A stretch of DNA of 64,000 nt, from assembly GCA_026770705.1 (NCBI GenBank), contig JANJGN010000052.1, forward strand, positions 3,844,001 to 3,908,000. Reading direction: 5' to 3'. The translations under genes were made by a program, and so were the position numbers. The DNA is from Isurus oxyrinchus (lineage: Eukaryota). The notes under the pieces are model-generated. The model had not been told where the DNA came from and ran no database searches. It was given only the letters and a program-made list of their open reading frames with translations. Shown piece by piece: positions 1-64,000 of the stretch (positions are counted from its first letter, which is position 1; each line of letters begins with the position of its first letter).

Positions 1-39
1 CTTAGCTTGCTCACTTTTAAACACTTGATTTGTTTTTAG

Positions 40-321
40 ATGCACCACAGGATCTCTCAATTACTTCTCTTGATATGATTAACGCTTCATCGATCAATAT
101 AATTGAGGGGAATTCTGCAGTGATAATCTGCTCTGTCGAGAGCTTCCCAGCTTCTAACCTGACGTGGCGACATCTTAATGTCCCAATGAACAGAACAAGT
201 TCCAACAATGAGCTGTGGTTGGTGATTCCTCACGTTACATCCAGGGACACTGGAGACTATCAGTGTGTGGCAGAGAATGAACATGGAGCAGTGGAGGGAT
301 TCATAACCATCACTGTGGAAT
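40..321 (+). CDS. Gene A C2-set Ig exon (282 nt, phase 1-1)
   Basis: tttttag|ATGCACCA...GTGGAAT|gtgagt; encodes APQDLSITSL...CSVESFPASNLTW...DTGDYQCVAENEHG. Confidence 0.92.
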
Positions 322-358
322 GTGAGTTAACACAAACTTCAACATTACTCTCACATAT

Positions 359-389
<31 letters not shown>

Positions 390-3300: not shown

Positions 3301-5794
3301 AGGGAAACTAGGGATGGACAATAAATGTCAGCATTGCCCGAGAATGAGTATTTAAACACTGAGTGAGTGTATCGCTTCTCGAGATACATCGGAGCATCAT
3401 TGTAAACCTGTAGTGCAGTAATTAATGGCTGTTTTTACAGGTAGAGACTCCAGTAAATGGACAGTAGGATTGTTCACGGCTGGGATCATGTTGAGTGTTT
3501 TCCTGGCTGGAATCTTCATCTTCATCTGTGTGAGAAAGTAAGTCTGAAGATTTAACTTGATTTTAATATAAACATTTGCTTCAATGTTCTATCCTTAAGT
3601 CGGTGATTGTTTCCCTTGGGAGCAGCACCAGGTCCCTCTCTGTAAGTGGTCCCTGTGTCCACTCTGATCCGGAGAGAACCTTTCATTGTCCTGTATCCAG
3701 GTAAACAATCACGAGACCCAGAGATTCCTCACTCTGCACGATTACTCCTGGATAAATATTTGCTTCAATGTTCTTTCCTGAAGTCGGTGATTGTTTCCCT
3801 TGTGTTAAGCGCTAGATGCCTCTCCGTAACTGGTCTCTTTTGTCCCTTACGATCCAGACAGTGTTTTTCATTGCCCGTTATCCAGATGAATAATAATCAG
3901 TTGCTGTGATCTGGAAGGTGCTGCCTGAAAGGGCGCTGGAAGCAGATTTAATAGGATCTTTCAAAAGGGGAATTGGATAAATACTTGAAGGGGGAACATT
4001 TGAAGGGCTATGGGGGGAAGAGCAGGGGTGGAGGGGGGGTCAAAGATATGGCGTGTCATTATAATGATATTATACCTTAGGCTTATTTATTGTACAAGAA
4101 ACAAAGCACCAATCGCTCACAGGGATTGGGTGAGAATGTTAATGATTTGTTTATCAAGACTCGGCACGAGAACAGTTATACATATGGAGAAAGATTGAAG
4201 GCATCAGAGCCATGAGTGTGTGTTCTGCTCAAAGCAAAAGTCAAACTAAGATTGGATCACATGACACACTTCCATTATAGTGATGTCACGCTGATACCCC
4301 TTATTGGAACTAGAGACAGTCCATTCGTTGGTGTAAGGTTACACTGGGCTCTGTGTCTGTGCTGCACTGACTCTCTGCTATATGATAACCACAGTGTGAT
4401 ATTGTGTTATTGCAGGAGAAAGACAGCGATGGAGGAGAGAGTTTCAGGGACCAGTGACATTGTATTGACCCCCAGTCCACTCTCTGTGAAGCACCAGGTA
4501 CAGGAGCTGTTTACACTCACTCCAAAGCTTCTATCTCAGTGTGTAGACAACACATGTCCCAGATTCCCAGCCAGGTTACCCACAGATATCTAACTGTGTA
4601 GTCAGATATGGCTCAGTATGTAGCATTGTCTCTCGCTCCCTCCCCCTCTTCCCTCCATCACTCGCTCTTTGACCAGAAACCTGAACGCAATAATGACAAG
4701 GCACCTGATGTCAGTAGTGAGGGAGTGCTGCACTGTCCTAGGGTCTGTGCTGAGGGAGTGCTGGAGTGTCAGAAGGTCAGTACTGAGGGAGTGTTGCACT
4801 GTCAGAGGGTCTGTACTGAGGGAGAGCTAGACTGTCAGAGGGTCAGTACTGAGGGAGTGCTGCGCTGTCATAGGGTCAGTACTGAGGGAGTGCTGGACTG
4901 TCGGACGGTCAGTACCGAGGGAGTGCTGCACTGTCGGAGGGTCAGTACTGAGGGAGTGCTGCACTGTCGGATGGTCAGTACTGAGGACAGTACTGAGTGA
5001 GTGCTGCACTGTCAAAGAGTCCATTTGCAAGGGGTGCTGCCCTCTTGAAGGGGCAGTTCCGAGGGAGTGCTGCACTGTCAGCAGAGAGCACTGAGAGAAC
5101 ATTGCAGTGTTCGAGGTGCCTCTTTCAGAATAGTTGTATAATGCTGACCATGTTTACCATCTTATCTGGTCCCATGGCCACATTTCCAACACTGTAGCAG
5201 TGTCTCCCTTCAATAAAATTCCTTCATTGGCGTGAGGTTCTTTGTGTGTCTGTGTTTGTGAATAATGGGGCACAAATCTCATGATTGGGATGGTAACATA
5301 GGACTTCAAGACTCAGGTCTGCGATAGCGAGAGAGATTACATGATAAATAGAGAGAGAAAGCAAGAGAGAGAGAGAGAAAGAGAGACAGAGAAAGAGATT
5401 GAAAAAAAGGAGACAGAGAAAGAGAGTGAAAAAGAGGGTTAAACCCATTGAGACATGACTGACAGTAACGAGGCTGCAGAATAACTTAACCCTATCAGTG
5501 CCAGTAAATGATGTGAGGATGTCTTCTGTTTCTATTTCTCTGTAGGGTAAACAGAACGTGCTGATTACTGAGCCCCGGAACACAACCAGAGACACAACTA
5601 GTGAGGGGGAGACCCCAGCTCCCCGGGGTCTCTCTGAAGGTCCAGTGGGAGGCGATGTTGGACATGGGAACCCCGACAAACCCGACGAGCTTTTCTACGC
5701 CAACATCAACTTTTCAAAGCTGCCCAGCGGTGACAGGACTGTGCACAGGAGCGAGGACACGGAATACGCACAGATCAGGTTCCAGAAAAACTGA
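40..5794 (+). CDS. Siglec-like inhibitory receptor, gene A, 3' part (5' end upstream of window). Exons 40-321, 1295-1576, 2343-2624 (C2-Ig), 3441-3537 (TM), 4416-4497 (cyto1), 5546-5794 (cyto2, ITIM+ITSM)
   Basis: All exons have AG/GT boundaries and compatible phases (1-1, 1-1, 1-1, 1-2, 2-0, 0-stop). The spliced frame is open. C2 exons have C...W...DTGDYQC and join as VE(Y/H)AP, as in CD22/MAG/Siglecs. Confidence 0.9.
790..1145 (+). mobile_element. Non-LTR retrotransposon (shark HER1-like, CR1/L2 group) 3' fragment
   Basis: Degenerate RT-end ORF (ESPTINILG...NWT) and a 3' tail 'ggcaattagggatgggtaataaatgctgg' shared with many copies in the window; mirrored at 55615-55980. Confidence 0.65.
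1295..1576 (+). CDS. Gene A C2-set Ig exon (282 nt, phase 1-1)
   Basis: Near-identical copy of 40-321 with canonical splice sites. Confidence 0.92.
2343..2624 (+). CDS. Gene A membrane-proximal C2-set Ig exon (282 nt)
   Basis: Near-identical copy with canonical splice sites; carries the NSTM variant. Confidence 0.92.
3441..3537 (+). CDS. Gene A transmembrane exon
   Basis: tttacag|GTAGAGAC...AGAAA|gtaagt; RDSSKWTVGLFTAGIMLSVFLAGIFIFICVRK is an uncharged hydrophobic helix followed by basic residues. Confidence 0.9.
4416..4497 (+). CDS. Gene A cytoplasmic exon 1
   Basis: ttgcag|G AGA AAG...CAC CAG|gtacag; phase 2-0 bridges the TM and last exon exactly (RKTAMEERVSGTSDIVLTPSPLSVKHQ). Confidence 0.8.
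4705..5090 (-). repeat. 33-bp minisatellite (ctccctcagtactgaccctccgacagtgcagca)n
   Basis: Tandem units visible in reverse orientation. Confidence 0.85.
5546..5794 (+). CDS. Gene A terminal exon with ITIM (LFYANI) and ITSM/ITIM-like (TEYAQI) motifs
   Basis: tgtag|GGTAAA, phase 0; ends ELFYANINFSKLPSGDRTVHRSEDTEYAQIRFQKN*, the same layout as CD33-related Siglec tails (LHYASL/TEYSEI). Confidence 0.9.
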   Translation, partial: GKQNVLITEPRNTTRDTTSEGETPAPRGLSEGPVGGDVGHGNPDKPDELFYANINFSKLPSGDRTVHRSEDTEYAQIRFQKN

Positions 5795-18240: not shown

Positions 18241-18500
18241 TGACTTGGAGACACTGTGTTGGGTGGAAGACTGGCTTCACTAAACAGGGTCCTGAGGACC
18301 ATGAGCCAATGTAGAATGAACTTGTCCACTCCTGTGTCCAGGATTCTCTTCCATCCATTGTGAAACCTTGGGGAGATCCCTGTGTGTCCTGTAGATGGTC
18401 CACACTGCAGCCACTGTGCCCCAGTGATGGACGGGGTGGATATTGAGTCTAGTGGATCTACAAACCAACCAGAGTTAAATATTGATATTTCTCTCCCCAG

Positions 18501-18869
18501 TTGGACTGTCACAAGAGTGGAAAGGTGACACTCCACGAGAGGTGACAGCGCAGGAAGATTCGTGTGTACAGATTCCATGTCATTACAGTTATCCATCACA
18601 TTTGGAAAGCCAACCACGAGTCGGAGTCTGGTTTAATAATGAGAATCAGATTCCTGGATCTCCCATTGCCTTTCACTCCAAGGATCACAGTCACGAGTTA
18701 CCACGGTTCCACCATCGGACCCGGCTGTCTGGAGACCTGAAAGATGGCGACTGTTCCCTGATTATAAACAACATCAGACGGGAAGATGCAGGACCTTATT
18801 TCTTCAGGATAGAATTTGACAGCAGTAATAGTTACAACTACTATCCTGTAACCCAGCTTCACGTTTCTG
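18501..18869 (+). CDS. Gene B Siglec V-set (sialic-acid-binding) domain exon, intact
   Basis: 369 nt, phase 1-1. Hallmarks: CVQIPCHYSYP, W, GDCSLII (Siglec-type B-E intrasheet Cys), DAGPYFFRIE with the essential Arg at 18806-18808 and no F-strand Cys. Confidence 0.95.
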
Positions 18870-19269
18870 GTAAGTGCTGTGTTATAATTACTCAACAATT
18901 CACATTCAACACTCAATGGGAATTAACACAAACTGTGACGTTTACATATTAACACAAAACACAGCTTATTATAACACACTGTCTGATTCTCAATAACCTG
19001 CTGATAGCTTCCAGTTCAGTCCTAAAGCAACCTCTAATACTCACTTTAATATCAATGATTAAATGTATTGACTGTGTCCATCAAAGTTATCAGGTTATCC
19101 ACTCTCATCGATCTCTCTAATCCTGTTTAAAATAATTTCCTGATCATTGTAACCTCTCAGTTCTGATATCATCCTTGTAAAAGTGCTTTCTCTTGTGGGA
19201 CTGTGATAACTATTTGAACTGATGCTTCACGTTATATTTCTCTAAAAGGATCCATTCTCTGTCTGTTAG

Positions 19270-19566
19270 ATTTCACAGATAAACCCACGATATTCCCTGC
19301 TGAAATTATTGCAGGAAAGCCTGTGGATGTAAGCTGCACCTTCAACACAACGTGCAATGGAACAGCAGCACCTGTCTTAACCTGGGACATTCCCACTGAC
19401 GTACCTGGATCAGTCTCAAACACTGTAACTCAGCATGGTGTCACTCTGACCTATACTTCTGTTCTGACCCTGATCCCATCACTCAAACACCACGGACACA
19501 CTCTCAGCTGCAGAGTGAGATATCCATCTGTTTCATCGGAGCGGACCCTCGTACTAACTGTACAAG
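19270..19566 (+). CDS. Gene B Siglec domain-2 (C-type Ig) exon, intact
   Basis: 297 nt, phase 1-1; DFTDKP...SCTFNTTCNGTAAPVLTW...HHGHTLSCRV. The extra Cys matches the Siglec V-D2 interdomain disulfide. Confidence 0.93.
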
Positions 19567-19779
19567 GTAAGTATGGACATCCTTCATTATACATTCGCTG
19601 GAACAGTCTATATTGTGCACAGCAGGATCCCATAGAAAGGTATTCTGATGAGAACCAGATCATCTGTAGTTTAGGGAAAAACACTAACCAGAAAACAGTT
19701 AATGACAGTTTCTGAACATTAACACTGGAGCTTTTTTTTCCAGCCAAGAAGCTGATAGAGCAGAGCATCATTCACAATA

Positions 19780-31626: not shown

Positions 31627-32000
31627 TTGGACTGTCACAAGAGTGGAAAGGTGACACTCCACGAGAGGTGACAGCACAGGAAGGTTCATGTGTACCGATT
31701 CCATGTCATTCCAGTTACTTATCAAATTTCGTAGGGAGATCACGTGCGGAATCTGGTTGAAAGGAATAGATGGGAACCCACAGCCTAAATGGTCTATAGC
31801 CTTTCACTCCGAGGGTCACAGTCACAGGGATCAAAGATTCCGCCATCGGACCCGGCTGTCTGGAGACCTGAAAGATGGCGACTGTTCCCTGATTATAAAC
31901 AACATCAGACGGGAAGATGCAGGACCTTATTTTTTCAGAATAGAGTTTGACAGCAGGAATAGTTACAGCTAGTATCCTGTAACCCAGCTTGACGTTTCTG
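31627..32000 (+). pseudogene. Gene C V-set exon, frameshifted
   Basis: Homologous to 18501-18869 and retains YFFRIE, but has a frameshift and a stop. Confidence 0.9.
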
Positions 32001-42629: not shown

Positions 42630-42746
42630 CTAATATCTACAGCAGATACCACAAGTCTCATTTGGTTCTCTCCAATTACAGCAGTTACAGCAGAATCTGC
42701 AGTGCCGCTGTCTGCCCATTCTCTTCTGGCACAGCAGTAAGGAGCC
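42630..42746 (-). CDS. hamp: Hepcidin-like exon 3
   Basis: ttttccag|GGC...; GSLLLCQKRMGRQRHCRFCCNCCNWREPNETCGICCRY*. Confidence 0.9.
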   Translation of the reverse strand, partial: GSLLLCQKRMGRQRHCRFCCNCCNWREPNETCGICCRY

Positions 42747-45700
42747 CTGGAAAAGCAGGAGCACAATAGGTGAGAACATTCCGGAAAGAAAGAAGGCACC
42801 GCCTCCCTTTGACTCTGGCATCATTTCAATCAGGCGCGTCATTGGAAGGAGGATGGCGCATTTCTCTAGCACCTTTCCCCTCCTCAGGATGGCCCAAAAT
42901 GTTCAACAGCTGATGGAAGGACTTTTTCTGAAGTGAGCTCACCGCTGTAATGTAGGAAACGCAGCAGGCAATTCACGCACAGCAAGATCCCACAAACAGA
43001 AATGTGATAATGGCCCCGATTTTCAGTTTTTTACCAATGTCAGTTGAGGGATAAATGTTTGCCCCAGGAAAGCGGACATAACTCCACCCCATCCAGCCCC
43101 CACCACCCCCTCCACACATACCCCCCAACTCCTGACGCACTTCATCTAAATTGTGGCCATGGAATCCTCTATATCCACCTGAGAGGGCAGATTGGTTGCC
43201 CCAGTTTAATGTCTCATCTGAAAGACAGCGCCTTCAACAGTGCAGCACCCCCTCAGTACTGACCCTCCGACTGTGCAGCACTCCCTCAGTAAGGACTCTG
43301 ACAATGCAGCACATCCTCAGTACTGACCCTCCAACAGTGCAGCACTCCCTCAAGACTGACCCTCTGACAATGCAACACTCCCTCAGTACTAACCCTCCGA
43401 CTGTGCATCCCCCCGCCGGTACTGACCCTTCGACAGTGCAACACTCCCTCAAGACTGACCCTCTGACAATGCAGCACTCCCTCAGTACTGACCCTCTGAC
43501 AATGCAGCACTCCCTCAGTACTGACCCTCTGACAATGCAGCACTCCCTCAGTACTGACCCTCTGACAATGCAGCACTCCCTCAGTACTGACCCTCTGACA
43601 ATGCAGCACACCCTCAATACTGACCCTCCGATAGCTCGGTCATTCCTCAATTACGCCTGGTGGTCCTTTTAATTCAGAGCTGAGAGTCCCAGAGAATCGA
43701 GCAGACACCCTGAACTGACTCTTGCAGTGCAAGTACTGGGAGCGCGCTGGTCATTATCATGCTGCTGTCTGTGGGATCTTACTGTGCGCCAATGGCTGAT
43801 TCTTTTCCCACATTACATCAGTGACCTCACATGAAAGAAAAAAGCACTTGATTGTCTGCGAAACACTTTGGGACGTCCTGATGTGTTGGAAGGCGCTAGA
43901 GAAATGCAAGTCCTCTTTGTCTTTCACTCGATCCTCTAAGGTGTCTGTTGATTAACCAGCCTCTCGGTGTTTGATGTAGGCCTGGTTATAAACAGGTAGA
44001 AGGATCAAATATCAAAAGTGCTTTGGCTGACAGTCAAACCGATTGTGCATTCGGAGAGATTAGATACGGTCTGCACACAATGACTCCAGTCTCTGGCACT
44101 GACTGCTGCCTGGGGACTCCCTTCCACATAACACTCACAACTTGCATTTACACAGCGCCTCTGACATTGCAAAATGTCCCAGCCCACATAACCGGAGCGT
44201 AAATCAGAGAGAAGTCTAACACTGAGTCACATATGGAGATATTAGGGATAGGTGACCAAAAGCTTGGTCAAAGATGTCAGTTTTTAAGGAACGTCTTAAA
44301 GGAGAGAGAGAGAGAGAGAGGCAGAGAGGTTAAGGGAGGGTATTCCGGAGCTCAGGGCCCCAGGAAGCTGAAGGCACGGCCTCCAATGGTGGAGCGATGG
44401 GAATCAGGGGGACCCGGGAGATGCAGTAATGTCAGAGATTTTGGAGGAACATCGGGACCGGAGGAGGTGTTCTCCTGCTCCATATCTCTCTCTCTCTTCC
44501 TCTCATCCACTCCTCCTCTCCCTGTCTCTCTCTCTCCTACTCTTCCGCTCAATTGCCCTCTCTCCCAATCTTTCTCTCCTCTCTCCCTTTTCCTGTCTCT
44601 CTCCCTCTCTCTCCCTGTCTCCTTCTCCCACTCTGTATCTCTCCCTCTCTCTCACACTATTTTTGTACCTTTCGCTCACTCTGTAACTCTCCCTTTCCTG
44701 TTAATTTCTCTCTCTTGGACAATCTCTCTTCCCTTTTCACTTTCCCTCACTCTGCATCTCTTCTTTAATTTCTCCCTCTGTCACTCTCTCCCACCTATGT
44801 TCTTTCCCTTTCACCCCTCCCCGTCCCACTCTCTGTCTCTCTCTTCCAATCCCTCCCTCCCCCATTCCATCCCTCTCTCCGACTCTCGACTCCCAGCCTC
44901 TCTTTAACCCACTCCCAGGCTGGATCAGTCTCCCTCTCACTATTCCCGGCGTGGGTTACATTTAAAATTCCTGTGGGGATATGTTCACTTCCTTGGAATT
45001 GTCTCTTCCCAGCTTTGCAAAAAAAGGAGGGGGGGGGGGGCTCGATTTCAAACATGCCTCCTGAGTATAACCGAGACAGACTGCCACTGAAATCAGCTTG
45101 AAATCAGAAAACTTTCTGTGGAAGAAACGAGCAGGGAGAAACCTTAAAATAAGGAATGAATTTCCACCTACCGTGTCCGGGGAATCCACAGATTTCTCAA
45201 TCGTCGAAGAACCTAAAGCAGTGTCAACCTGCAAAAAGAAAGAATTTATCAGGGAGAAAGTGAGAGGAGGATTGAGGGAGAGGGAGAGAGAGAGAGAGAG
45301 GTACAGGAGAGAGAGGGGGAGGAGGACAGACTTGCATTTCTCTAACGCCTTTCACCACATCCCAAAGCATTTCACAGCCACTGAAGGATGTTTTTGAAGT
45401 GCACTCACACTGTAGGAAATGTGGCAGCTGATTTGTGCACAGCAAGATCCCACAAATAGCAATGTGATCATGGCCTAGATCATCTGTTTTTGGTGATGTT
45501 GGGTGAGGGATAAATATTGGTGCCAGGACACCGGGGAGAACACCCCCTGCTCTTCCTCCAAATAGTGGCTGTGGGATCTTTCACACCCGCCCGAGAGGGC
45601 AGACGGGGGACTCGGTTTAATGTCTCATTCAACATTGTTGTGCTCCCTCAGTACTAACCCTTTGACACTGCAGCACTCCCTTAGTATTAACCCTTCGATA

Positions 45701-47507
45701 GTGCTGCGCTCCCTCAGTACTGTCCCTCCGTCAGTGCAGCGCTCCCTCAGTACTGACCCTCCGACAGTGCAACACTTCCACAGTACTGACCTCCGACAGT
45801 ATAGCGCTCCCTCAGTACTGACCCTCCGTCAGTGCAGCTCTATTTCATTACTAACCCTTCGACACAGCAGCACTCCCTCAGTACTGACCTCCGACAGTAT
45901 AGCACTCCCTCAGTACTGTCCCTCCAATAGTGCAACACTTCCACACTACTGACCCTCTGAGAGTGCAGCACTCCCTCAGCACGGAGCATTGATCTACATT
46001 ATGGGACTGAATTCCCTGGAGTGAGACTCAGACCAGTGATTTAGGTAGGGGTGTGGGGGCTGGAGGAGGTTACAGAGATAGGGAGGGCTGTAGAGGCTGT
46101 AGGAGGTTACAGAGAAAGGGAGGGTTGTAAGGGCTGTAGGAAGTTACAGAGATAGGGAGGGTTGTAGAGGCTGTAGGAGGTTACAGAAATAGGGAGGTGA
46201 GTAGGGGCTGGAGGAGGTTACAGAAATAGGGAGGCTGTAGAGGCTGTAGGAGGTTACAGAGATAGGGAGGGTTGTAAGGGCTGTAGGAAGTTACAGAGAT
46301 AGGGGGGTTGTAGAGGCTGTAGGAGGTTACAAAGATGGGGGAGTTGTGGGGGCTGGAGGAGGTTACAGAGGTAGGGAGGTGTGTAGGGGCTGTAGGAGGT
46401 TACAGAGATGGGGTGGTTGTGGGGGCTGGAGGAGGTTACAGATGTAGGGAGGGTTGTAGAGGCTGGAGGAGGTTACCAAAATAGACACTGCTGTAGGGGC
46501 CACAGTATGTTACAGAGATAGGGAGAGTTATAGTGTGGAGAGGAGGTTATAGAGTTCAGGAGGATTGTAGGGGCTGGAGGAGGTTACAGTGATTGTGAGG
46601 GTTGTGGGGCCTGGAGGATTTTACAGAGATAGGGAGGGTTGTAGGGTCTGAAGCAGGTTACAGAGATAGGGAGGGTTGTAGGGTCTGGAGCAGGTTACAG
46701 AGATAGGGAGGGTTGTAGGGTCTGGAGCAGGTTACAGAGATAGGGAGGGTTGTAGGGTCTGGAGCAGGTTACAGTGATCGTGAGGGTTGTGGGGCCTGGG
46801 GGAGGTTACAGAGATAGGGAGTGCTGTGGGGACTGTAGGAGGTTACATAGATAGGGAGGGTTGTCGGGTCTGGAGGAGGTAACAGAGATAGGGAGGGTTA
46901 TAGGGACTGGAGGAGGTTACAGAGATAGGGAGGGTTGTCGAGACTGTAGGATGTTACAGAGATAGGGATTGTTGTAGGGGCTGGAGGAAGTTACAGAGAT
47001 AGGGAGGGTTGTAGGGGCTGGAGGAGGTTACAGAGATAGGGAGGGGTGTAGGGGCTGGAGGAGGTTACAGAGATAGGGAGGGTTGTACGGGCTGGAGGAG
47101 GTTACAGAGATAGGGAGGGTTGTAGGGGCTGGAGGAAGTTACAGAGATAGGGAGGGTTGTAAGGCCTGGTGGAGGTTACAGAGATAGGGAGGGTTGTACG
47201 GGCTGGAGGAGGTTACAGAGATAGGGAGTCGCTGAGGAGGGATTGAAAACAAGAATGAGAATTTCAGGGGAAATGACAGAAGGAAATGATGTTAAATTCA
47301 TAGAGGGCGACAATATTAAAGGCATGAACATAATAATATCAAACTGCGGAAGAGACCAGTCTATCTGGGTGGTAGACGTAGAGTCATGTGCAAGAAGCAC
47401 CTCACCCAGAGGGACATCTCTTAGCTTAACCTCGACAAGGAGAAGAAGTGACTCAGCTGCAGGGAGAGCAGCAAAGTCAGAGTGAACAAGACAAGTCGCC
47501 ATTTCAT
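42630..47507 (-). CDS. hamp: Hepcidin-like gene (3 exons: 47507-~47431 signal peptide, 45228-45172 pro-region, 42746-42630 pro-end plus mature peptide); possibly a pseudogene as assembled
   Basis: Exon 3 encodes CRFCCNCC...CGICCRY*, the 8-Cys hepcidin pattern at the C-terminus after QKR. Exon 2 is 57 nt, phase 0-0. Exon 1 MKWRLVLFTLTLLLSLQLSHFFS is a signal peptide. The exon-1 donor is 1 nt out of phase. Confidence 0.82.
43235..43635 (+). repeat. 33-bp minisatellite continuing from a SINE body
   Basis: Tandem units. Confidence 0.85.
44483..44905. repeat. CT-rich low-complexity tract
   Basis: Direct inspection. Confidence 0.8.
45172..45228 (-). CDS. hamp: Hepcidin-like exon 2 (pro-segment)
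   Basis: ttctttttgcag|GTT...ACG|gtaggt; the only open frame is VDTALGSSTIEKSVDSPDT; acidic/Ser-rich, size and phase as in hepcidin exon 2. Confidence 0.7.
45640..45985 (+). repeat. 33-bp minisatellite continuing from a SINE body
   Basis: Tandem units. Confidence 0.8.
46045..47230 (+). repeat. 37-bp G-rich minisatellite (gggagggttgtaggggctggaggaggttacagagata); reverse array at 49880-50460
   Basis: Tandem units. Confidence 0.9.
47431..47507 (-). CDS. hamp: Hepcidin-like exon 1 (signal peptide)
   Basis: ATG at 47507; basic n-region plus Leu-rich h-region; TATA-like box ~90 nt upstream. Confidence 0.7.
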
Positions 47508-47591
47508 CTGGGAGCTTCCCATCTCTGCCTGTCTCTTCTGATCTTCTGGCTCTGCTTTGATGCTTTGGTTTGTAACTACAGGAGCTTCCTG

Positions 47592-47806
47592 CTCTTATAC
47601 CTGAAACACTTGAAGGGGACAGCCGCGGGTGGGTAGCTGTGTGGTATCACACCCATTTCTGGATATTGCAGTGTCGATGTTCCCTGTCCCACTGGCCTGG
47701 GACCAGCAGTAAGGTCACTGGGACATTGACTGTCTGGCGCCGAGAACTATCAGTCCCTCCGCAACGCCCTTCACCTTGTGCAAATATGTGTTCATATTGA
47801 TGCAAC
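47592..47806 (-). promoter_or_regulatory. Hepcidin-like promoter: TATAAG (47599-47594), GTCT+GGCGCC BMP/SMAD element (47732-47741), C/EBP-like TTGTGCAA (47776-47783), TGATGCAA (47798-47805)
   Basis: Motif matches; BMP-RE GGCGCC and C/EBP sites are known HAMP promoter elements. Confidence 0.5.
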
Positions 47807-48194
47807 ACAACATAGCAAAAAGATAGGGGCTGGTTCTTATGTCGGCAAATCAGGTGAAGCGCACGCCCCCTAACCCCTTACTCCTCTCATTGCTCCTCCT
47901 TCCTGCCAGACACTTACTATTTTACAAATTGTGTGCGTTGCTTTTATTTCGGACAAGGGGCCTCGAGGGGGAACTGATTTACGCTGAGGTTTAGGGGTTA
48001 ACAGCCATGTCATGTGTTGATCGGTCAGTGTTTACCATGTGGAGACTGTCTATCACCAGCTTTGTTCATGGTTTATCCAGGAACATTGAAGGGCATGAAC
48101 GTTCTTGCTTTGTATGGAACAAGTTACCAACTGGGTTCAGTCATCGACTCAGACTCACATCAACATAAACTGGCTTCTGACAGGTAAGTTTCTA

Positions 48195-51239: not shown

Positions 51240-52112
51240 GTCTCTTCCTTGTATCTCTTGCCTTCCTCCTGGAACATTGGACATGGTTGGGTCTTCCCTG
51301 CCAACTGTTTCTTCAGTTTGCTCAGAGCGGCACAGAATTCGCTTTCTTTCTCTTCAGGATTTTCCAGTGGAACCAACTCTGACCTGAGGGACACTTGCAG
51401 CCTGTGAGGATGCTTCAATTCTTCAAACTCATTCCGAGATACACTCTCATATTCCCCCAGCAACTCAGCAACTCCTCCAGTGAAACATTTCAGAGCAGCT
51501 GAGCTTGGTTTTCTGGAACCAGTCTCGGCCCAGAAGACTAGGGCCCTCACCTGTCGCTATGATCACTGGAAGCTGGGCTGTCTGCTGCCTGTAGGACACA
51601 GGTACTGGGATGAGGTCCTTTCCCTGTATGGATTCTCCAGTGTGTGTCTTCAGCTGATCCATTGTTGGCTCTAAATTCAGCGTCTGGGTTCCTTCATTTA
51701 GCTGTTTAAATGTGGGCTCTTCCACCACTGTGTCTGAGGCTCCCGTATCTGCCCCATTACTAGTGGCTGCCCATTCACTTGGGTTGTGATGGTTATAGGT
51801 TCAGTTTTTACCGCTGTGACATTGGACAGGGAATAGACATCGGTATCAGCAGCTTCAGGCTCTGTGATATTATTCACTTCCATCATGTTGGTGCACTGCC
51901 TGATGGGCTGTCTCGATTTCACCCTGCATTGCTTTATTACCCGCCCCTTTCTTGTGGCAGTGATGGCATTCTGCCCCCTTGAACCTGCAGGTGTCCGGTA
52001 CGAGCTCACTCCCCCCCACATCGAGAACAGGCCAACTTCGGAGTTGCTGCTGAAATACTCCCACGAAGCCTTTTAGTTTCTGGAGCGGCAGAGACTGTCT
52101 CTCGCTTGGCGG

Positions 52113-52145
<33 letters not shown>

Positions 52146-53319: not shown

Positions 53320-55108
53320 CTGTAAAAACAGCCATTAATTACTGCACTACAGGTTTACAATGATGCTCCGATGTATCTCGAGAAGCGATACACTCACTCA
53401 GTGTTTAAATACTCATTCTCGGGCAATGCTGACATTTATTGTCCATCCCTAGTTTCCCCTTGAGAAGGTGGTGGGGAGTCTTCCTCCTGAACCACTGGTT
53501 TGTCCCAAACTGGGAGACCAGTTCAGAGGGCAGGTAAGAGTTAACCATGCTGGTGTCTGAGACTGGAGTCACATCCACATCGAGACATGCTTCCCTCCCT
53601 AAAGGGTATGTAGTCTCTACACATGTAACAACCAACCTCACTGAAATAATCAACTATCAGGTCATTATCACACGGTAGTTTGCGGGATCTTGCTGTGCAC
53701 AAATCAGTACCTGTGTTTCCTACATTACAAAAGTGTGCTCACTTCGATAATGCTTCACTGGCTGTTGAATGTTTAGTAATTTCTAAGCAATTTATGAATA
53801 CAAGTGTTGCATTTCAAAGTAATCCATGTTACATTTATATATAATATTTATCAATTAAAGAATGAGAAGTTCAGCAATTAAAAGGGTTGTTCAGGACAGT
53901 TAGAGAGAGAAAGGTCTTCAAGCACGGAGATTGGAAACGAAGACCTGACAGCCTTGTCCTGACAACCATTGAAGGAGAAACTGAGAGCAAAAACAGAAAG
54001 GGAGAGGAAAAATTGGGTGTGTGGATAACGTGGACTGAGCGAGGATTGAAGAAAACTGGATTAAAAACAACACGATCCCAATGGTTCCACGGAGACCACG
54101 GAGACAACAAACAAACAAATGTATCTCCACACTCACGTTCCACAGTGATGGTTATGAACCCCTCCACTGCTCCATGTTCATTCTCTGCCACACACTGATA
54201 GTCTCCAGTGTCCCTGGATGTAACGTGAGGAATCACCAACCACACCTCATTGTTGGAACTTGTTCTGTTCATTGGGACATTAAGATGTCGCCACGTCAGG
54301 TTAGAAGCTGGGAAGCTCTCGACAGAGCAGATTATCATTGTAGAATTCCCCTCAATTATATTGATCGATGAAGCGTTAATCATATCAAGAGAAGTAAATG
54401 AGAGATTCTGTGGAGCATCTAAGAACAAATCAAGTGTTTAAAAGTGAGCAAGCACAGTTTACAGCAAGACTCCATGCATCATCTCTCTGTATCTGATGTC
54501 TGTATGCATAGCCAGGTCCCTCCACTCCATATAACTTCCATTGACAAATTTATAGTGGGCACTGCCTATGTAAACAGTCAAACTGCAGTTACATTCTCCC
54601 AACAGTAGAGGTGCTGTCCACCTAGAATGGAAGAAACTTTCACATCCTCAGGATATACACAAGGGCTTGACAGGCAATGATTGTATTTGATTGATGGAGC
54701 ACTGAGGGGTAAATCTACAATTCTCTGTTCAGGAGGTTGCTCATCCAATTCAGGGTCTTGTTGATCTGGAGTTTACCTTCCTTCAACACAGAATCAGAGC
54801 TGATACCGAGACTCCAGTGCAGCACTGAGAGAGGACAGGGAACTCACACATGTGTTTGTGTTTGTGTGTTTTAGTGTGTTTGTGTTTCTGCACAAGAGAG
54901 TATGTTTATGTGTGCGTGTGTGTATGTGTTTGTGCATGTGTGCATGTGCCTGTTTGTATACATCTGTGCATGAGTGAGTGTGTGCATGTGTATGTCTATG
55001 TGTGTGCACATGTGACTGTGTGTGTGAGTTGAGTGTGTGTGTGTTTCTGTGTATGTGTTTCAACATGCATCACTGTGTGTGTAAGTGTGCGTGTATGTGT
55101 CTACACAT

Positions 55109-55159
<51 letters not shown>

Positions 55160-57433
55160 TGATGTTGAAGTTTGCAGTAACTCACGTTCCACAGTGATGG
55201 TTATGAACCCCTCCACTGCTCCATGTTCATTCTCTGCCACACACTGATAGTCTCCAGTGTCCCTGGATGTAACGTGAGGAATCACCAACCACAGCTCATT
55301 GTTGGAACTTGTTCTGTTCATTGGGACATTAAGATGTCGCCACGTCAGGTTAGAAGCTGGGAAGCTCTCGACAGAGCAGATTATCACTGCAGAATTCCCC
55401 TCAATTATCTTGATCGATGAAGCGTTAATCATATCAAGAGAAGTAATTGATGGGTTCCGTGGTGCATCTAAATACAAATAAAGGTTTCATTGTGAGCAAA
55501 CACAGTGCACAGCAAGACTCCATGATACATCTCTCTCTATTTGGTGTCTATGTGCATTTCAAGGTTTCTGTCCTGTTTTAAGTTTCTATGTCAACTTTTA
55601 TAATGGTCACTGCCGGCGTTTTTCTTTTTGTACATTCATGGGAAGTGGCTGTATCTATCTAGAGCAGCATTTATTACCCATCCCTAATTGCCCTTGAGGA
55701 GGTGGTGGTGAGTTTTTCACCCCCACAGGATTCCCAGCCTCTGACCGGCTCCTGTAGCCACAGTATTTATGGCCGGTCCAGTTAGTTGTTTGGTTAACAC
55801 CCCCCAGGATGTTGATTGTGGGGGATTCAGTGACCGTAAACTCACTGAACATCAAGGGGAGATGGTTAGATTCTCTCTTGTTGGACATGATCACTGCCTG
55901 GTGCTTGTGTGGTGTGAACATTACTTGTCATTTCTCAGCCCAAGCTGAGTGTTGCTCAGTTCTTGCTGCGTGTGGATATGTAAACTGTCACGCTGTAATT
56001 ACAGCCTTCCACCAGAGGAGACACTGTCGGGCTAGGAGAAAAGAAAATGTCTTTCACATCATCAGGATGTTCACAGGGATTTGACAGTGGAGGAATTGCT
56101 TTAGAATAATGCGGTATTGAGTGATAAACCTACAATTCTCTGTGCAGGGGGCTGCTCGTCCAATACAGGGTCTTGTTCAGCTGATGTCGTCAGTGTTTCA
56201 GAGCAGAATCTGGAGCAACACTCCAGTGCAGCACAGGGAGAACAGACAACTCACACATGTCTGTGTGTGTGTGTGAGCAAGCACACGTGTGATTCTGTAT
56301 GTATGCTTCTGTGTGTGAGCATGCAGGCGTGCACACCTGTGCACATGTGGGATTCCACATGAATGCTTGTTTGTGTGCACGTGTCTGTGTGTGTGTGTTT
56401 GTGTGAGTGTGTGTGTATATATGAGAGTAATGTTGAAGTTTGTGTTAACTCACATTCCACAGTGATGGTTATGAACCCCTCCACTGCTCCATGTTCATTC
56501 TCTGCCACACACTGATAGTCTCCAGTGTCCCTGGATGTAACGTGAGGAATCACCAACCACAGCTCATTGTTGGAACTTGTTCTGTTCATTGGGACATTAA
56601 GATGTTGCCACGTCAGGTTAGAAGCTGGGAAGCTCTTGACAGAGCAGATTATCACTGCAGAATTCCCCTCAATTATATTGATCGATGAAGCATTAATCAT
56701 TTCAAGAGAAGTAAATGAGAGATCCTGTGGTGAATCTAAGAACAAATCAAGTGTTTAATGTGAGCAAGCAAAGTGCACAGCAAGACTCCACGCATCATCT
56801 CTCTGTATCTGATGTCTGTATGCATTGGCAGGTACCGTCCCTCCATATAACTTCCACTGTCAAATTTATAATGGGCACTGCCTATGTAAACAGTCAAACT
56901 GCAGTTACATTCTCCCACCAGTAGAGGTGCTGTCTACCTAGAATGAAAGAAACTTTCACATCCTCAGGATTTTGCCAAGGGATTTACGGGAATGAATTGT
57001 ATTTGATTGATGGAGCACTGAGGGGTAAATCTACAATTCTCTGTTCAGGAGGTTGCTCATCCAATTCAGGGTCTTGATCTGGAGTTTACCTTCCTACAAC
57101 ACAGAATCGGAGCTGATATCGAGACTCCAGTGCGGCACTGAGAGAGTAGCGGGACCTCACGTGTCTGTATGTTTGTGTTTGTGTTTCTGCAGATGTGAGT
57201 GTGTTTGTGTGGGTATGCACACATGTGTCTGTGTGTGCATGTGTGTATGTGTTTGCGCAAATGTGCGTGTGTCTTTGTGTATATTTCTGTGCATAAGTGA
57301 ATGTGTGTACATGTGTATGTGTATGTGTGTGCACGTGTGAGTGTGTGTGTGTGAGTTGAGTGTGTGTATGTTTCTGTGTAGGTTTTTGCACATGTATGAC
57401 TGTGTGTAAATGTGCATGTATGTGCCCCCACAT

Positions 57434-57493
<60 letters not shown>

Positions 57494-59384
57494 AAGATGT
57501 TGAGGTCTGTGTAACTCACGTTCCACAGTGATGGTTATGAACCCATCCACTGCTCCATGTTCATTCTCTGCCACACACTGATAGTCTCCAGTGTCCCTGG
57601 ATGTAACGTGAGGAATCACCAACCACAGCTCATTGTTGGAACTTGTTCTGTTCACTGGGACATTAAGATGTCGCCACATTAGGTTAGAAGCTGGGAAGCT
57701 CTTAACAGAGCAGATTATCACTGCAGGATTCCCCTCAATTATATTGATCGATGAAGCGTTAATCATACCAAGTGATGTAATTGAGACATCCTGTGGTGCA
57801 TCTAAAAACATAGAAAAATTTTAATGTGAGCAAATATAGTGCACAGCAAGACTCCATGCATCATGTCTCTGTATCTGATGTCTGAATGCATTTCCAGGTA
57901 ACTTCCCTCAGGATAAGGTCTTATGGCACATTTATAATTGACACTGCCTATGTAAACTGTCACACTGCAGTTGCATTCTCCCACCAGTAGAGGTGTTGTC
58001 CATTTAGAATGAAAGAAGCTTGCTTTCACATCCTCAGGATTTCGCAAAGGGCTGGACAGGCAATGAATTTTATTTGATCGAGGGAGCATTTAGGGGTAAA
58101 TCTACATTTCTCTGTTCAGGAGGTTGCTCCATCCAATTCAGGGTCTTGTTGATCTGGAGTTTACCTTCCTTCAACACAGAATTGGAGCTGACACCGAGAC
58201 TCCAGTGCAGCACTGAGAGAGGACAGGGAACTCACGCGTGTGTATGTGTGTGTTTGTGTTTCTGCACAAGTGAGCGTGTTTGTGTGTGTATGCACACATG
58301 TGTCTGTGTTTGCACTTGCGCATGTGTCTGTGTGTCTACGTCTGTCCATGAGTGAGAGTATGTGCATGTGTGTGTCTATGTGTGGGCATGAATATGTGTG
58401 TGTTTGAGATGGGTGTGTATTTTCCTGTGTATGTGTTTGTGTGTGTATGACTGTGTGTGTATAATTATGCATGTGTGTGCCTACAGGTGTCTGTCTGGGT
58501 GTGTGTGTGTGTCTGTGTGCGTGTGCGTGTGCGTGTGTGTGTGTGTGTCTGTAGGTGATGTTGAAGTTTGCAGTAACTCACGTTCCACAGTGATGGTTAT
58601 GAATCCCTCCACTGCTCCATGTTCATTCTCTGCCACACACTGATAGTCTCCAGTGTCCCTGGATGTAACGTGAGGGATCACCAACCACAGCTCATTGTTG
58701 GAACTTGTTCTGTTCATTGGGACATTAAGATGTCGCCACGTCAGGTTAGAAGCTGGGAAGCTCTCGACAGAGCAGATTATCACTGCAGAATTCCCCTCAA
58801 TTATATTGATCGATGAAGCATTAATCATTTCAAGAGAAGTAAATGTGAGATTCTGTGGAGCATCTAAGAACAAATCAAGTGTTTAATGTGAGCAAGCAGC
58901 GTGCACAGCAAGAATCCATGCATCATGTCTCTGTATCTGATGTTGGAATGCATTTCCAGGTACCTTCCCTCATGAAAAAATACTGTCACATTTATAATGG
59001 GCACTTCCTCTGTAAACTGTCACACGGCAGTTGCTTTTTCCCACCAGTAGAGTTGCTAACCCTCTAGAATGAAAGAAACATCCTTTAACACTCTCAAGAT
59101 GTCCCCAAAGGCTTGACAGGCAATGAATTGTATTTGATCGATGGAGCACTGAGGGCTAAATCTACATTTCTCTGTTCAGGAGGTTGCTCATCCAATTCAG
59201 GGTCTTGCTGATCTGGAGTTTACCTTCCTTCAGCACAGAATCAGAGCTGATACCAAGACTCCAGTGCAGCACTGAGAGAGGAGAGGCCGCTCATACTTGT
59301 GTGTGTTTGTGTGTGTGTGTGTGTGTACTTCTGCGCAAGTGAGTTTGTATTTGTGTGTATGCGCGTGTCTGTCAGCGCATATGT

Positions 59385-59417
<33 letters not shown>

Positions 59418-60609
59418 TGTGTGTGTATGTCTGTGCTTGAGGGAGTGTGTGTGCATATGTGTCTCTATGTGTGCGCATGAATGATTGTATGTGTGAGTTG
59501 AGTTTGTGTGTGTTTCTGTGTATGTGTTTGAACGTATGTTTGTGTGTAAGCGTGCATGTTTGTGTCTACACATGAGTGTTTTTGCATGTGTGAGTGTGTG
59601 TGTGTGTGAGTGATGTTGAAGTCTGTGTACACTCACATTCCACAGTGATGGTTATGAATCCCTCCACTGCTCCATGTTCATTCTCTGCCACACACTGATA
59701 GTCTCCAGTGTCCCTGGATGTAACGTGAGGAATCACCAACCACAGCTCATTGTTGGAACTTGTTCTGTTCATTGGGACATTAAGATGTCGCCACGTCAGG
59801 TTAGAAGCTGGGAAGCTCTTAACAGAGCAGATTATCACTGCAGGATTCCCCTCAATTATATTGATCGATGAAGCGTTAATCATATCAAGAGAATTAATTG
59901 AGAGATTCAATGGTGCATCTAAATATATGGAAAGATTTTAATGTGAGCAAATATAGTGCACAGCAAGACTCCATGCATCATGTCTCTGTATCTGATGTCT
60001 GAATGCATTTCCAGGTAACTTCCCTCAGGATAAGGTCTTATGGCACATTTATAATTGACACTGCCTATGTAAACTGTCACACTGCAGTTGCATTCTCCCA
60101 CCAGTAGAGGTGTTGTCCATTTAGAATGAAAGAAGCTTGCTTTCACATCCTCAGGATTTCGCAAAGGGCTGGACAGGCAATGAATTGTATTTGATTGATG
60201 GAGCACTTAGGGGTAAATCTACAATTCGCTGTTCAGGAGGTTGCTCATCCAATTCAGGGTATTGTTGATCTGGCGTTTACCTTCCTTCAACACAGAATTG
60301 GAGCTGACACCGAGACTCCAGTGCAGCCCTGAGAGAGGAGAGGGAGCTCACGCGTGTGTATGTGTGTGTCTGTGTTTGCTTTTCTGCACAGGTGAGTGTG
60401 CTTGTGTGTGTATGCACACCTGTATCTGTGTGTGCGCATGCACGCGTTTCTGTGTGTCTACGTCTGTCCATGAGTGAGTGAATGTGCATGTGTGTGTCTA
60501 TGTTTGGGCATGAATATGTGTGTGTGATTGAGATGGGTGTGTATTTTCCTGTGTATGTGTTTGTACGTGTATGAATGTGTGTATATAATTATGCATGTGT
60601 ATGCTTACA

Positions 60610-60654
<45 letters not shown>

Positions 60655-63600
60655 GCGTGTCTGTATGTGTGTGTGTGTGTGTGTGTGAGAGATGTTGAAG
60701 TTTGCAGTAACTCACGTTCCACAGTGATGGTTATGAATCCCTCCACTGCTCCATGTTCATTCTCTGCCACACACTGATAGTCTCCAGTGTCCCTGGATGT
60801 AACGTGAGGAATCACCAACCACAGCTCATTGTTGGAACTTGTTCTGTTCATTGGGACATTAAGATGTCGCCACGTCAGGTTAGAAGCTGGGAAGCTCTCG
60901 ACAGAGCAGATTATCACTGCAGAATTCCCCTCAATTATATTGATCGTTGAAGCGTTAATCATATCAAGAGAAGTAAATGAGAGATTCTGTGGTGCATCTA
61001 AAAACATATAAAGATTTTAATGTGAGCAAGCACAGTGCACAGCAAGACTCCATGCATCATCTCTCTGTATCTGATGTCTGAATGCATTTCCAGGTTCCTT
61101 CCCTCAGGATAAGAACTTATTTCACATTTACAATGGGCACTGCCTATGTAAACTGTCACACTGCAGTTACATTCTCCCACCAGTGGAGGTGTCCATCTAG
61201 AATGCAGGAAACTCCCTTTCAGATCCTCAGGATGTCCCCAAGGGCTTCAAAGGCAATGAATTGTGTTTGATCGATGGAGCACTGAGGGGTAAATATACAT
61301 TTCTCTGTTCAGGAGGTTGCTCCATCCAGTTCAGGGTCTTGTTGATCTGGAGTTCACCTTCCTTCAACACAGAATCAGAGCTGATACCGAGACTCCAGTG
61401 CAGCACTGAGAGAGGAGAGGGTACCCACACGTTTTTGTCTGTGTATGTGTGTGTTGGCTTGTGTGTGTGTATGTTTNNNNNNNNNNNNNNNNNNNNNNNN
61501 NNNNNNNNNNNNNNNNNNNNNNNNNNNNNNNNNNNNNNNNNNNNNNNNNNNNNNNNNNNNNNNNNNNNNNNNNNNNNNNNNNNNNNNNNNNNNNNNNNNN
61601 NNNNNNNNNNNNNNNNNNNNNNNNNCACTCACATTCCACAGTGATGGTTATGAACCCCTCCACTGCTCCATGTTCATTCTCTGCCACACACTGATAGTCT
61701 CCAGTGTCCCTGGATGTAACGTGAGGAATCACCAACCACAGCTCATTGTTGGAACTTGTTCTGTTCATTGGGACATTAAGATGTCGCCACATCAGGTTAG
61801 AAGCTGGGAAGCTCTCGACAGAGCAGATTATCACTGCAGAATTCCCCTCAATTATATTGATCGATGAAGCGTTAATCATATCAAGATAAGTAATTGAGAG
61901 ATTCTGTGGTGCATCTAAAAACATATAAAGATTTTAATATGAGCAAATATAGTGCACAGCAAGACTCCATGCATCATGTCTCTGTATCTGATGTCTGAAT
62001 GCATTTCCAGGTACCTTCCCTCAGGATAAGAACTTATTTCACATTTACAACGGGCACTGCCTATGTAAACTGTCACACTGCAGTTACATTCTCCCACCAG
62101 TGGAGGGGTCTATCTAGAATGCAGGAAACTCCCTTTCAGATCCTCAGGATGTCCCCAAGGGCTTCAAAGGCAATGAATTGTATTTGATCGATGGAGAACT
62201 GAGGGGTAAATCTACAATTCACTGTTCAGGAGGTTGCTCATCCAGTTCAGGGTCTTGTTGATCTGGAGTTTACCTTCCATCAACAAAGAATCGGAGCTGA
62301 TACCGAGACTCCAGTGCAGCACTGAGAGAGGAGAGGGTACCCACACGTTTTTGTGTGTGAATGTGTGTGTTGGCTTGTGTGTGTGTATGTTTCTGCACAA
62401 CAAGGATCTGTGTGTGCACGCACGCATGTGTGTTTGTGTGTGTGCGCACGTGTGTCTGTCTGTGCGTGTGTGTGTGTGTGAGTTAAGGTTGTGTGTCCTT
62501 CTGCATGTGTGTCTGTTTGTGTGTGTGTGTGTGTGTGAGTGTGTGTGTGTATGTGTGTGTGTGTGTGTGAGTGATGTTGAAGTTTGCAGTAACTCACGTT
62601 CCACAGTGATGGTTATGAACCCCTCCACTGCTCCATGTTCATTCTCTGCCACACACTGATAGTCTCCAGTGTCCCTGGATGTAACGTGAGGAATCACCAA
62701 CCACAGCTCATTGTTGGAACTTGTTCTGTTCATTTGGACATTAAGATGTCGCCACGTCAGGTTAGAAGCTGGGAAGCTCTCGACAGAGCAGATTATCACT
62801 GCAGAATTCCCCTCAATTATGTTGATCGATGAAGCGTTAATCATATCAAGAGAATTAATTGAGAGATTCTGTGGTGCATCTAAAAACAAATAAACATCAA
62901 TTAACTTAAACTGACTGTGAAGCACTTTGAAATACACTGAGAATGTGAAAGGTTTGATATCAATGCAGGTTCTTTCACCACAAAGCCCGTAATCCAGGCA
63001 GACAAATCAGTTCAGTATTGAGGGAGTGCTGCAATGACAGAGGGTCAGTACTGAGGGAGTGCTGCACTGTCAGTGTGTCAGTACTGAGGGAGTGCTGTAG
63101 TGTCAGACGGTCAGTACTGAGGGAGTGCTGCATTGTCAGTGTGTCAGTACTGAGGGAATGCTGCACTGTCAGAGGGTCAGTACTGAGGGAGTGCTGCACT
63201 GTCAGTGGGTCAGTACTGAGGGAGTGCTGCACTGTCAGATGGTCAGTAAAGAGGGGGTGCTGCACTGTTTGACGGTCAGAACTGAGGGGGTGCTGCACTC
63301 TCAGAGGGTCAGTACTGAGGGAGTGCTGCACTGCGAAGATTCAGTACTGAGGGGGTGCTGCACTGTCGAAGGGTCAGTAGTGAGGGAATGCTGCAGTGTT
63401 GGAGAGTCAGTATTCAGGGACTGCTGCAGTGTCAGAGGTGAATTTGTATCAATTAAAGACTATTGATTTGTTGCTAAACACAATGCAGTTGTGGGATCTT
63501 GCAGTGTACTATGTGGAGCTTTCTAGCTAATGTAGATGGAAGGGAGTCGGTACTTACCTTGCACAGTTAGTACGAGGGTCCGCTCCGATGAAACAGATGG

Positions 63601-63854
63601 ATATCTCACTCTGCAGCTGAGAGTGTGTCCGTGGTGTTTGAGTGATGGGATCAGGGTCAGAACAGAAGTATAGGTCAGAGTGACACCATGCTGAGTTACA
63701 GTGTTTGAGACTGATCCAGGTACGTCAGTGGGAGTGTCCCTGGTTAAGACAGGTGCTGCTGTTCCATTGCACGTTGTGTTGAAGGTGCAGCTTACATCCA
63801 CACGCTTTCCTGCAATAATTTCAGCAGGGAATATCGTGGGTTTATCTGTGAAAT
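53223..63854 (-). CDS. Siglec-like gene D (5' end beyond window): D2 63854-63558; nine C2 exons 62879-62598, 61914-61633, 60997-60716, 59918-59637, 58863-58582, 57801-57520, 56735-56454, 55467-55186, 54418-54137; TM 53319-53223; no cytoplasmic exons found
   Basis: All exons are open with AG/GT boundaries. D2 is near-identical to gene B D2. The last three C2 exons, TM and introns are an inverted near-copy of gene A. Confidence 0.88.
63015..63435 (-). repeat. 33-bp minisatellite
   Basis: Tandem units; same intron position as the arrays in gene B. Confidence 0.85.
63558..63854 (-). CDS. Gene D Siglec domain-2 exon
   Basis: Reverse-complement homolog of 19270-19566; conserved Trp replaced by Arg. 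Confidence 0.9.
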
Positions 63855-64000
63855 CTAACAGACAGAGAATGGATCCTTTTAGAGAAATATAACGTGAAGC
63901 ATCAGTTCAAATAGAAATCACAGTCCCACAAGAGAAAGCACTTTTACAAGGATGATATCAGAACTGAGTTGTTTTAACTATCCTGATAGACTGTTAGACA

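Follow-up and report, generated by a model that had tools for sequence, protein, structure and literature searches.

A hepcidin-type gene among Siglec/CD22-like exons

The window, by which we mean the whole 64,000-nucleotide stretch of DNA analysed here, carries a three-exon gene on the minus strand (47522-47430, 45228-45172 and 42746-42630) whose third exon encodes a hepcidin-like peptide, together with exons of Siglec/CD22-like genes:

47636..47870, minus: block upstream of the gene that contains GGCGCC (47741-47736) and the half-site TGACCT (blastn)
47594..47599, minus: TATAAG, a TATA-like box that reads TATAAA in the canonical genes
47430..47522, minus: coding part of exon 1 (31 codons), with the predicted signal peptide and the beginning of the pro-region
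47424..47429, minus: broken intron-1 donor, AGG/TTAAGC (GTAAGC in the canonical genes and intact copies)
45172..45228, minus: exon 2, pro-region, 19 codons, phase 0/0, AG and GT intact
42720..42746, minus: exon 3 pro-part, ending in C-Q-K-R
42630..42719, minus: mature-peptide codons and stop
42654..42662, minus: N-E-T sequon, within the loop from Cys5 to Cys6 (canonical genes: K-K-T)
21..5794, plus: Siglec-like gene with Ig exons and an exon for a cytoplasmic tail that carries the tyrosine motif T-E-Y-A-Q-I
18479..19715, plus: Siglec/CD22-like V-set and C2-set exons (Pfam V-set, Ig_CD22, C2-set_2)
31655..31972, plus: remnant of a second Siglec/CD22-like V-set exon (Pfam V-set, Ig_CD22)
53871..63906, minus: tandem exons for Ig domains (I/C2-set) belonging to another Siglec-like gene (open reading frame list; two of the exons matched Pfam Ig_3 and C2-set_2)

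Translation of 42719-42630 on the minus strand gives MGRQRHCRFCCNCCNWREPNETCGICCRY followed by a stop, a peptide of 29 residues with eight Cys and a net charge of +3. As the initial annotation had described it, the peptide is real: it has the hepcidin pattern C-x2-CC-x-CC-loop-C-G-x-CC with its eight Cys, eight residues (NWREPNET) separating Cys5 and Cys6, and one N-E-T sequon. The Pfam Hepcidin model (PF06446) matched window exon 3 with an E-value of 4e-5 and 24.3 bits, against a curated cut-off of 27 and with the exon scored alone, and we found 88 sister exons genome-wide (88 exact matches to the loop pattern). Since the peptide is encoded by the last exon of a three-exon gene, has a Pfam match and has 88 sister exons, we do not regard it as a chance reading. 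The closest named relatives of the window gene were shark and ray hepcidins, with that of basking shark first; the best PDB match was bass hepcidin 1s6w (CRFCCNCC-PN...CGVCCRF, E-value 0.07). An AlphaFold2 model of the peptide was uninformative (mean pLDDT 47.5, no secondary structure).

Two canonical hepcidin genes on contig C34

A genome search with PF06446 returned 97 matches, the two best of which lie 31 kb apart on contig C34. Both C34 genes encode R-Q-K-R followed by MSHLSICMYCCGCCNKKGTKKTCGYCCKL, have intact splice sites and a TATAAA box, and specify a peptide with the N-terminus M-S-H-L-S-I-C and a net charge of +5; over the exon-3 query the pair is 92% identical to basking shark hepcidin. 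Siglec/CD22-like exons lie on both sides of the pair, and LSR, used as a synteny anchor, matched on C18, C452 and C1620 and had no match on C34. The orthology we propose for the C34 pair is thus based on sequence and on the Siglec/CD22-like neighbors, and the two genes likely keep the iron-hormone role. Nurse shark plasma proteins are reported to include hepcidin (PMC9207270).

The long Cys5-Cys6 loop had been put forward as a sign of a non-iron hepcidin. Eight residues are also found there in both C34 genes and in five of the six named shark and ray hepcidins, the exception being a second paralogue in catshark, whose loop has four residues. A long loop thus belongs to sharks and rays and does not set apart the window-type family (hereafter the class), and that argument has to be given up. 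By the initial annotation, a canonical hepcidin with the same loop and the same N-terminus would refute its proposal; the C34 genes match on the loop, which is half of that case, and retain M-S-H-L-S-I-C as their own N-terminus. A motif x-S/T-H-hydrophobic before Cys1, which is a HAMP1 feature, was present in both C34 genes and five of the six named homologues, and in 0 of the 86 in-frame copies of the class.

At least 128 hepcidin-derived loci

The class comprises no fewer than 128 loci derived from hepcidin, spread over 15 contigs; C52 holds 40 of them. Exact exon-1 donor patterns gave 51 TT and 71 GT matches, two of the latter being the canonical genes, and the total is made up of the 51 TT and 69 GT family matches plus 8 exon-3 matches without a donor match; it is a lower bound, as four further promoter blocks lie away from the scored loci. 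Exon 3 is present in 89 of the 128 loci, which agrees with the 88 exact loop-pattern matches, and in the 39 loci without it we found no CC-x-CC frame that could serve as an alternative third exon. Scored alone against PF06446, 75 exons genome-wide reach 27 bits or more (2 canonical and 73 class). A three-exon prepropeptide with a signal, in frame and spliceable, is encoded by 43 of the 128 loci, and the window copy fails at its intron-1 donor; the other 85 are broken, 31 of them by the TT donor only and the rest through missing exons or otherwise.

Hepcidin loci are accompanied by a Siglec/CD22-like V-set exon pattern with 686 exact matches genome-wide, or about five per hepcidin locus; among the first 100 of the 686 listed, 96 are on C52, 3 on C34 and 1 on C25. 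This Siglec-like array is very large and is possibly a larger finding than the hepcidins; a literature search for such an array found no paper. Within the window, a V-set exon keeps Y-F-F-R, the Arg of which presumably occupies the sialic-acid-binding position, and the tail exon of the gene at 21..5794 had no Pfam match, its T-E-Y-A-Q-I motif being one that we take to be ITIM-like. At 51400-52470 (minus) we saw, by eye, decayed frames resembling retrotransposon gag/protease remnants, and at 23978-26231 a tandem repeat of about 2.2 kb with a 24-base unit and long open frames; a similar repeat lies near the C34 genes.

In 21 loci, the exon that comes after hepcidin exons 1-2 is a Siglec-like tail exon, in phase 0:

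Chimera-type loci: L034, L041, L046, L048, L050, L055, L060, L067, L077, L083, L087, L089, L096, L101, L106, L107, L111, L114, L117, L120, L126

The tail exon has 82 codons in 20 of the 21 loci and a GT donor in 13, and it is possible that these loci encode a putative secreted chimera with a tyrosine motif. Two basking shark isoforms, P0008 and P0009, likewise have hepcidin exons 1-2 joined to unrelated tails, the tail of P0009 resembling a repeat-like frame at window 31290-31574.

Mature peptides of the class

The 43 intact copies encode 21 different mature peptides, the commonest of which, MGRQQLCRFCCNCCNWREPNETCGLCCRY, occurs in 13. All eight Cys are kept in 43 of 43 intact copies and in 84 of the 86 in-frame copies, and N-E-T is present in all 86. 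The furin site of the intact copies reads R-Q-K-R in 34, R-Q-N-R in 7 and H-Q-N-R in 2. Two features are specific to the class, its changed N-terminus and its N-E-T sequon. Variation within the peptide is greatest at the N-terminus, and most copies keep six residues before Cys1 and a free C-terminus. Seven copies (L040, L043, L068, L070, L084, L098 and L129) have a 6-base deletion that leaves M-G-R-F ahead of Cys1, which resembles the short N-termini found in teleost HAMP2. By hand count 9 of the 21 non-Cys positions are invariant, so the chance that N and T of the sequon are both invariant is near 0.17. The sequon, nine residues away from the C-terminus, adjoins a Cys, and sequons in such places are often incompletely occupied. 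The cationic N-terminus that the initial annotation had noted is found in the first six residues of the window peptide, although that peptide as a whole is less charged (+3) than the canonical one (+5). It does not serve as a class mark, as the N-terminus is M-D-R-Q-Q-L in 7 of the 43 intact copies and M-S-Q-H-Q-F in a second species, organism B.

The organism B sequence, hand-read from a difference table, comes from one class-type exon in a DNA run, with the loop unchanged and N-E-T and R-Q-K-R intact; the contig has a depth of 606 with no single-copy control, and hence no copy number was taken from it. An RNA-like run from the same organism (X5) was of the canonical type. Window exon 3 as a protein query had no match (word-seeded search; phmmer against 1.84 billion representatives), which, since a query of 38-40 residues is weak, shows only the absence of a close class member on record, and a basking shark protein as query returned canonical and catshark forms only and no class-type protein.

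Transcripts, and the state of the window copy

Contigs X1-X3, all from one sample, were judged to be RNA by their exon-limited cover and splice junctions. Their summed depth is of the order of 1e5 on exon 1, where the cover has sharp edges, and below 500 in the intron; the exon 1-2 junction AGG/GTTGAC is present, and loose ends at 47430 continue as exon 2 in frame. In X1, exon 3 is covered and joined to exon 2, with several family alleles. Intact-type copies are therefore spliced in frame. Canonical-only letters at 42560, 42569 and 42597 account for about 3-6% of X1 summed depth, which is a hint only, because contig depth cannot rank genes.

The exon 1 coding part has 3-4 non-synonymous differences from canonical. 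The window copy differs from the intact copies at several points. Its intron-1 donor has changed from GT to TT; use of the shifted GT donor would give a product of 35 residues and then a stop. An exon-1 frameshift was considered and rejected, as the donor change accounts for the phase conflict. The furin site R-X-K/R-R is absent, a CpG transition at 42731 having turned the P4 Arg into a ninth Cys, and C-Q-K-R precedes the mature peptide in this copy alone (1 of 86 in-frame copies), so its mature start is uncertain. Window letters 47579, 42731 and 42623 are absent from the X1 contigs; this is not proof of silence, because the RNA donor may be another individual. Taking the donor, the P4 change and the absent private letters together, we conclude that the window copy is likely a pseudogene, which makes the single peptide flagged there of low value. 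Another locus, L090, is intact and has the same mature peptide behind R-Q-K-R, so a peptide of the window type may itself still be made.

A family-specific change (TTA>TGG) creates an out-of-frame ATG (window 47502-47431) whose frame agrees with that of the shifted donor in the TT copies, and the frame from ATG 47502 runs for 81 codons, signal-less and open through the end of the mature peptide. We consider it very improbable that the window and other TT-donor copies are active by this route, through a one-base donor shift and an 81-residue intracellular product without a signal. The open frame, the origin of the ATG within the family, the sharing of the TT donor by 51 copies, and a Phe allele on one X1 contig, which in the assembly only TT or acceptor-broken copies have, would fit such activity; but this ATG is the third in the mRNA and the first has a good context, GTTAAG makes a weak shifted donor, the family-type exon 1-2 junctions are at 47430 except for one variant, with 0 shifted among the 19 listed of 28 loose ends, and GT copies carry the same ATG, which is therefore older than the donor change.

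Excess divergence confined to the mature peptide

The family majority differs from C34 at 34.5% of mature-peptide bases (30 of 87), compared with 4-11% in the introns and 3'UTR and 1-4% in the 5'UTR; the introns are about 8% changed, and against a baseline of 0.08 the divergence of the mature part has a binomial P of 2.5e-12. Between class and canonical, the mature part has a pS of 0.29 (17 sites) and a pN of 0.36; as pS is also high, dN/dS is about 1.2 and the case for selection rests on the intron baseline. Within the family, we compared 69 full-length copies (the 88 with exon 3 minus 19 lacking an exon or having indels) and found a piN of 0.050 and a piS of 0.011 in the mature part, about 0.002 in exons 1-2, and 0.009-0.019 in the introns and 3'UTR; conversion may add to the very low exon-1 variation, because silent and UTR sites are included in it. 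Common variants occupy 13 of 87 mature sites vs 65 of 1383 non-coding sites (P 4e-4) and 0 of 150 sites in exons 1-2 (P 0.002), and all four allele combinations occur at 46 of 78 pairs of common exon-3 sites. We infer from these patterns that the change in the mature peptide was probably driven by positive selection, with variants shuffled by gene conversion. The proposal of a separate non-canonical class is thus upheld by its many copies, the loss of M-S-H-L-S-I-C, its fast divergence and its splicing in RNA, and loses the long loop and the cationic N-terminus as its marks.

A distal promoter block beside the TATA box

The upstream block at 47636-47870 is 83-84% identical over 235 nt to C34:15238481-15238706 and 15208302-15208527. 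This GGCGCC block lies 2.8 and 3.5 kb upstream in the canonical genes and about 0.1-0.35 kb upstream of the ATG in the window; a deletion junction lies near 47633-47636, and upstream of about 47633 the family and the canonical proximal promoter cease to match. The block pattern had 116 matches, of which the 100 listed were all on C34 or array contigs. GGCGCC is kept in 106 of the 122 family loci with exon 1 scored, and 16 have GGTGCC. The TGACCT in the block we take to be an HNF4/COUP-type half-site. We found no STAT3-site pattern within 400 bases in either class or canonical promoters. In human, the GGCGCC of the distal BMP element is at -2255, with bZIP and HNF4/COUP sites on its flanks (PMC3879105). 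The deletion placed a block resembling a distal BMP element beside the TATA box, and this may explain the strong expression.

Function and alternative explanations

In the hepcidin-ferroportin complex, contacts are reported to be made by the first six hepcidin residues (PMC9882908). The class has replaced these residues and keeps changing them, and for that reason we think it likely, judging from the peptide sequences, that it has lost ferroportin action. As the sequences show, a shark HAMP copy among Siglec/CD22-like genes lost about 3 kb of promoter, leaving the distal GGCGCC block beside the TATA box; its mature peptide changed at 30 bases, and it was amplified together with the Siglec neighbors. 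Intact copies are predicted to be secreted and cut after R-Q-K-R by a furin-type enzyme. Replacement of S-H-L-S-I by G/S/D-R-Q-Q-L would remove the ferroportin contacts, such that even very high class output would leave blood iron unlowered, and the disulfide hairpin may act instead on microbes, by killing, clumping or endotoxin binding, as in teleost HAMP2. The net charge of the class (0 to +4, most often +2, vs +5 in canonical) is low for membrane killing. Seahorse hampII peptides are reported to be weak killers, yet to clump microbes and bind endotoxin (PMC9073008), a mode that fits the class because its charge is low. Teleost HAMP2 is described as antimicrobial, with the same pattern of change (PMC8502971, PMC6240063).

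The copy number itself could in principle be an artefact of assembly, from haplotigs or from collapsed and re-expanded repeats, given that the loci lie on 15 unplaced-looking contigs and include three near-identical intact pairs, each across different contigs, which may be haplotigs. We find this scarcely credible, as C52 alone holds 40 loci with 17 intact copies and 11 different peptides, 38 of the 40 same-length intact copies are distinct at a threshold of 4 differences per ~2 kb, and several alleles occur in RNA. That the copies are passengers of the Siglec amplification, transcribed from a strong promoter without a selected role, is improbable: the 686 V-set matches against 128 hepcidin loci, the 85 broken loci, and the sharing of exon-3 variants at similar frequencies by TT-donor and intact copies would all be expected of passengers, but a four-fold excess of divergence confined to a mature peptide that keeps all eight Cys, exons 1-2 far less variable than the introns, and retention of the class with an unchanged loop in a second species would not.

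A continuing part in iron control, with the class as a BMP-driven and weak ferroportin binder, a competitor of the canonical hormone, or a ligand aimed at a divergent ferroportin paralogue, is to our minds unlikely. The GGCGCC beside the TATA box is the best evidence for it: a BMP-type element is the iron-sensing input in mammals, and the class promoter keeps it in most loci and brings it closer. The shark also has three ferroportin-like genes, L151 (C14:56.78 Mb), L152 (C3:138.66 Mb) and L153 (C14:74.69 Mb); L151 and L152 keep G-F-D-C, and L153 has G-F-D-G, lacking the Cys that matches human Cys326, and is therefore predicted to be hepcidin resistant. The six residues before Cys1 and the free C-terminus of most copies would suit a ferroportin ligand as well, and some croaker Hamp2 peptides are reported to affect intracellular iron (PMC6240063). 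Weighing against such a role, the His and hydrophobic residues have been replaced in what is now the most variable part of the peptide, rapid diversification into 21 peptides is an ill fit to one conserved host receptor, and 16 loci have GGTGCC. Another scheme, in which a BMP/iron enhancer fused to the core promoter, the loss of ferroportin binding, shuffling by conversion and the sequon would together have produced secreted glycopeptides that serve as partners, ligands or decoys of the Siglec-like receptors of the array, strikes us as quite improbable. On balance we lean towards the joint reading of a nonfunctional window copy, an intact class of predicted host-defence peptides that do not act on ferroportin, and a C34 pair that is the iron hormone.

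Comparison with known hepcidins

Human hepcidin-25 shares the 8-Cys pattern; unlike the class, it is the product of a single gene, has a ferroportin-binding N-terminus and has a four-residue Cys5-Cys6 loop. Its promoter has the distal GGCGCC about 2.3 kb upstream (PMC3879105), compared with 2.8-3.5 kb for the C34 block. The canonical shark and ray hepcidins (the C34 pair; XP_078389754.1 of basking shark, XP_038670190.1 of catshark, and XP_072914840.1 and XP_059813392.1 of rays) have the same three phase-0 exons as the class, a nearly identical signal and pro-region, an M that follows the dibasic site, eight Cys and the 8-residue loop, whereas the class has replaced the M-S-H-L-S/P-I/V N-terminus and the lysine-rich loop, gained the sequon and has a lower net charge. 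Catshark P0007 ('hepcidin-2-like', Scyliorhinus canicula) resembles the class as a divergent paralogue beside a canonical gene, with the N-terminus M-T-N-H-S-I; it differs in its four-residue loop, its lack of a sequon and its presence as one sequence in the collection, and represents a separate duplication.

Percomorph teleosts are known to have hepcidins of two kinds, an iron hormone and a defence class, the 15 genes of seabream being the highest count we found, and Hamp2 is reported only in Percomorphaceae and Ovalentaria (PMC6240063). We found no report of a shark hepcidin or shark Siglec expansion among titles and the starts of abstracts, and subscription papers or supplements may hold one. 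The split seems to have arisen separately in sharks, with at least 128 loci and similar residue changes. The canonical and derived peptides come from one genome and have signal, pro-region and loop length in common, and so offer a natural test of which residues make an iron hormone and which a defence peptide; in addition there are 21 candidate peptides from a group with little-studied antimicrobial peptides, a promoter deletion that isolates a distal BMP-type element, and a Siglec-like array that is large and unannotated.

The nearest known system is teleost HAMP2 (bass 1s6w, seabream hamp2.1-2.14, croaker Lchamp2-1 to 2-5 and seahorse hampII), which is likewise multi-copy beside a conserved HAMP1, has lost the HAMP1 N-terminal motif, is under positive selection and has a wide range of charge. 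The class and 1s6w share C-R-F-C-C-N-C-C and C-G-x-C-C-R-aromatic stretches, and 1s6w has an N-M-S sequon in the same loop as the class sequon; native bass hepcidin was reportedly isolated without a glycan. The charge of seabream HAMP2 is reported to range from -2 to +6.25 (PMC11043163). In copy number the class, with at least 128 loci and 43 intact copies, differs from seabream with 15 genes (PMC11043163) and croaker with 6, and it differs further in its promoter deletion, its co-amplification with Siglec-like genes and its independent origin from shark HAMP, the introns being about 92% identical to C34. Because it shares 89-99% identity with the canonical genes of the same shark in introns, UTRs and signal exon, the class is an analogue of HAMP2 and not a member; the analogy drawn in the initial annotation thus applies to the many copies and the diversifying mature peptide beside a conserved HAMP1, and does not extend to descent from the percomorph HAMP2 duplication. 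By this analogy, the class most likely works like teleost HAMP2, having arisen independently in sharks.
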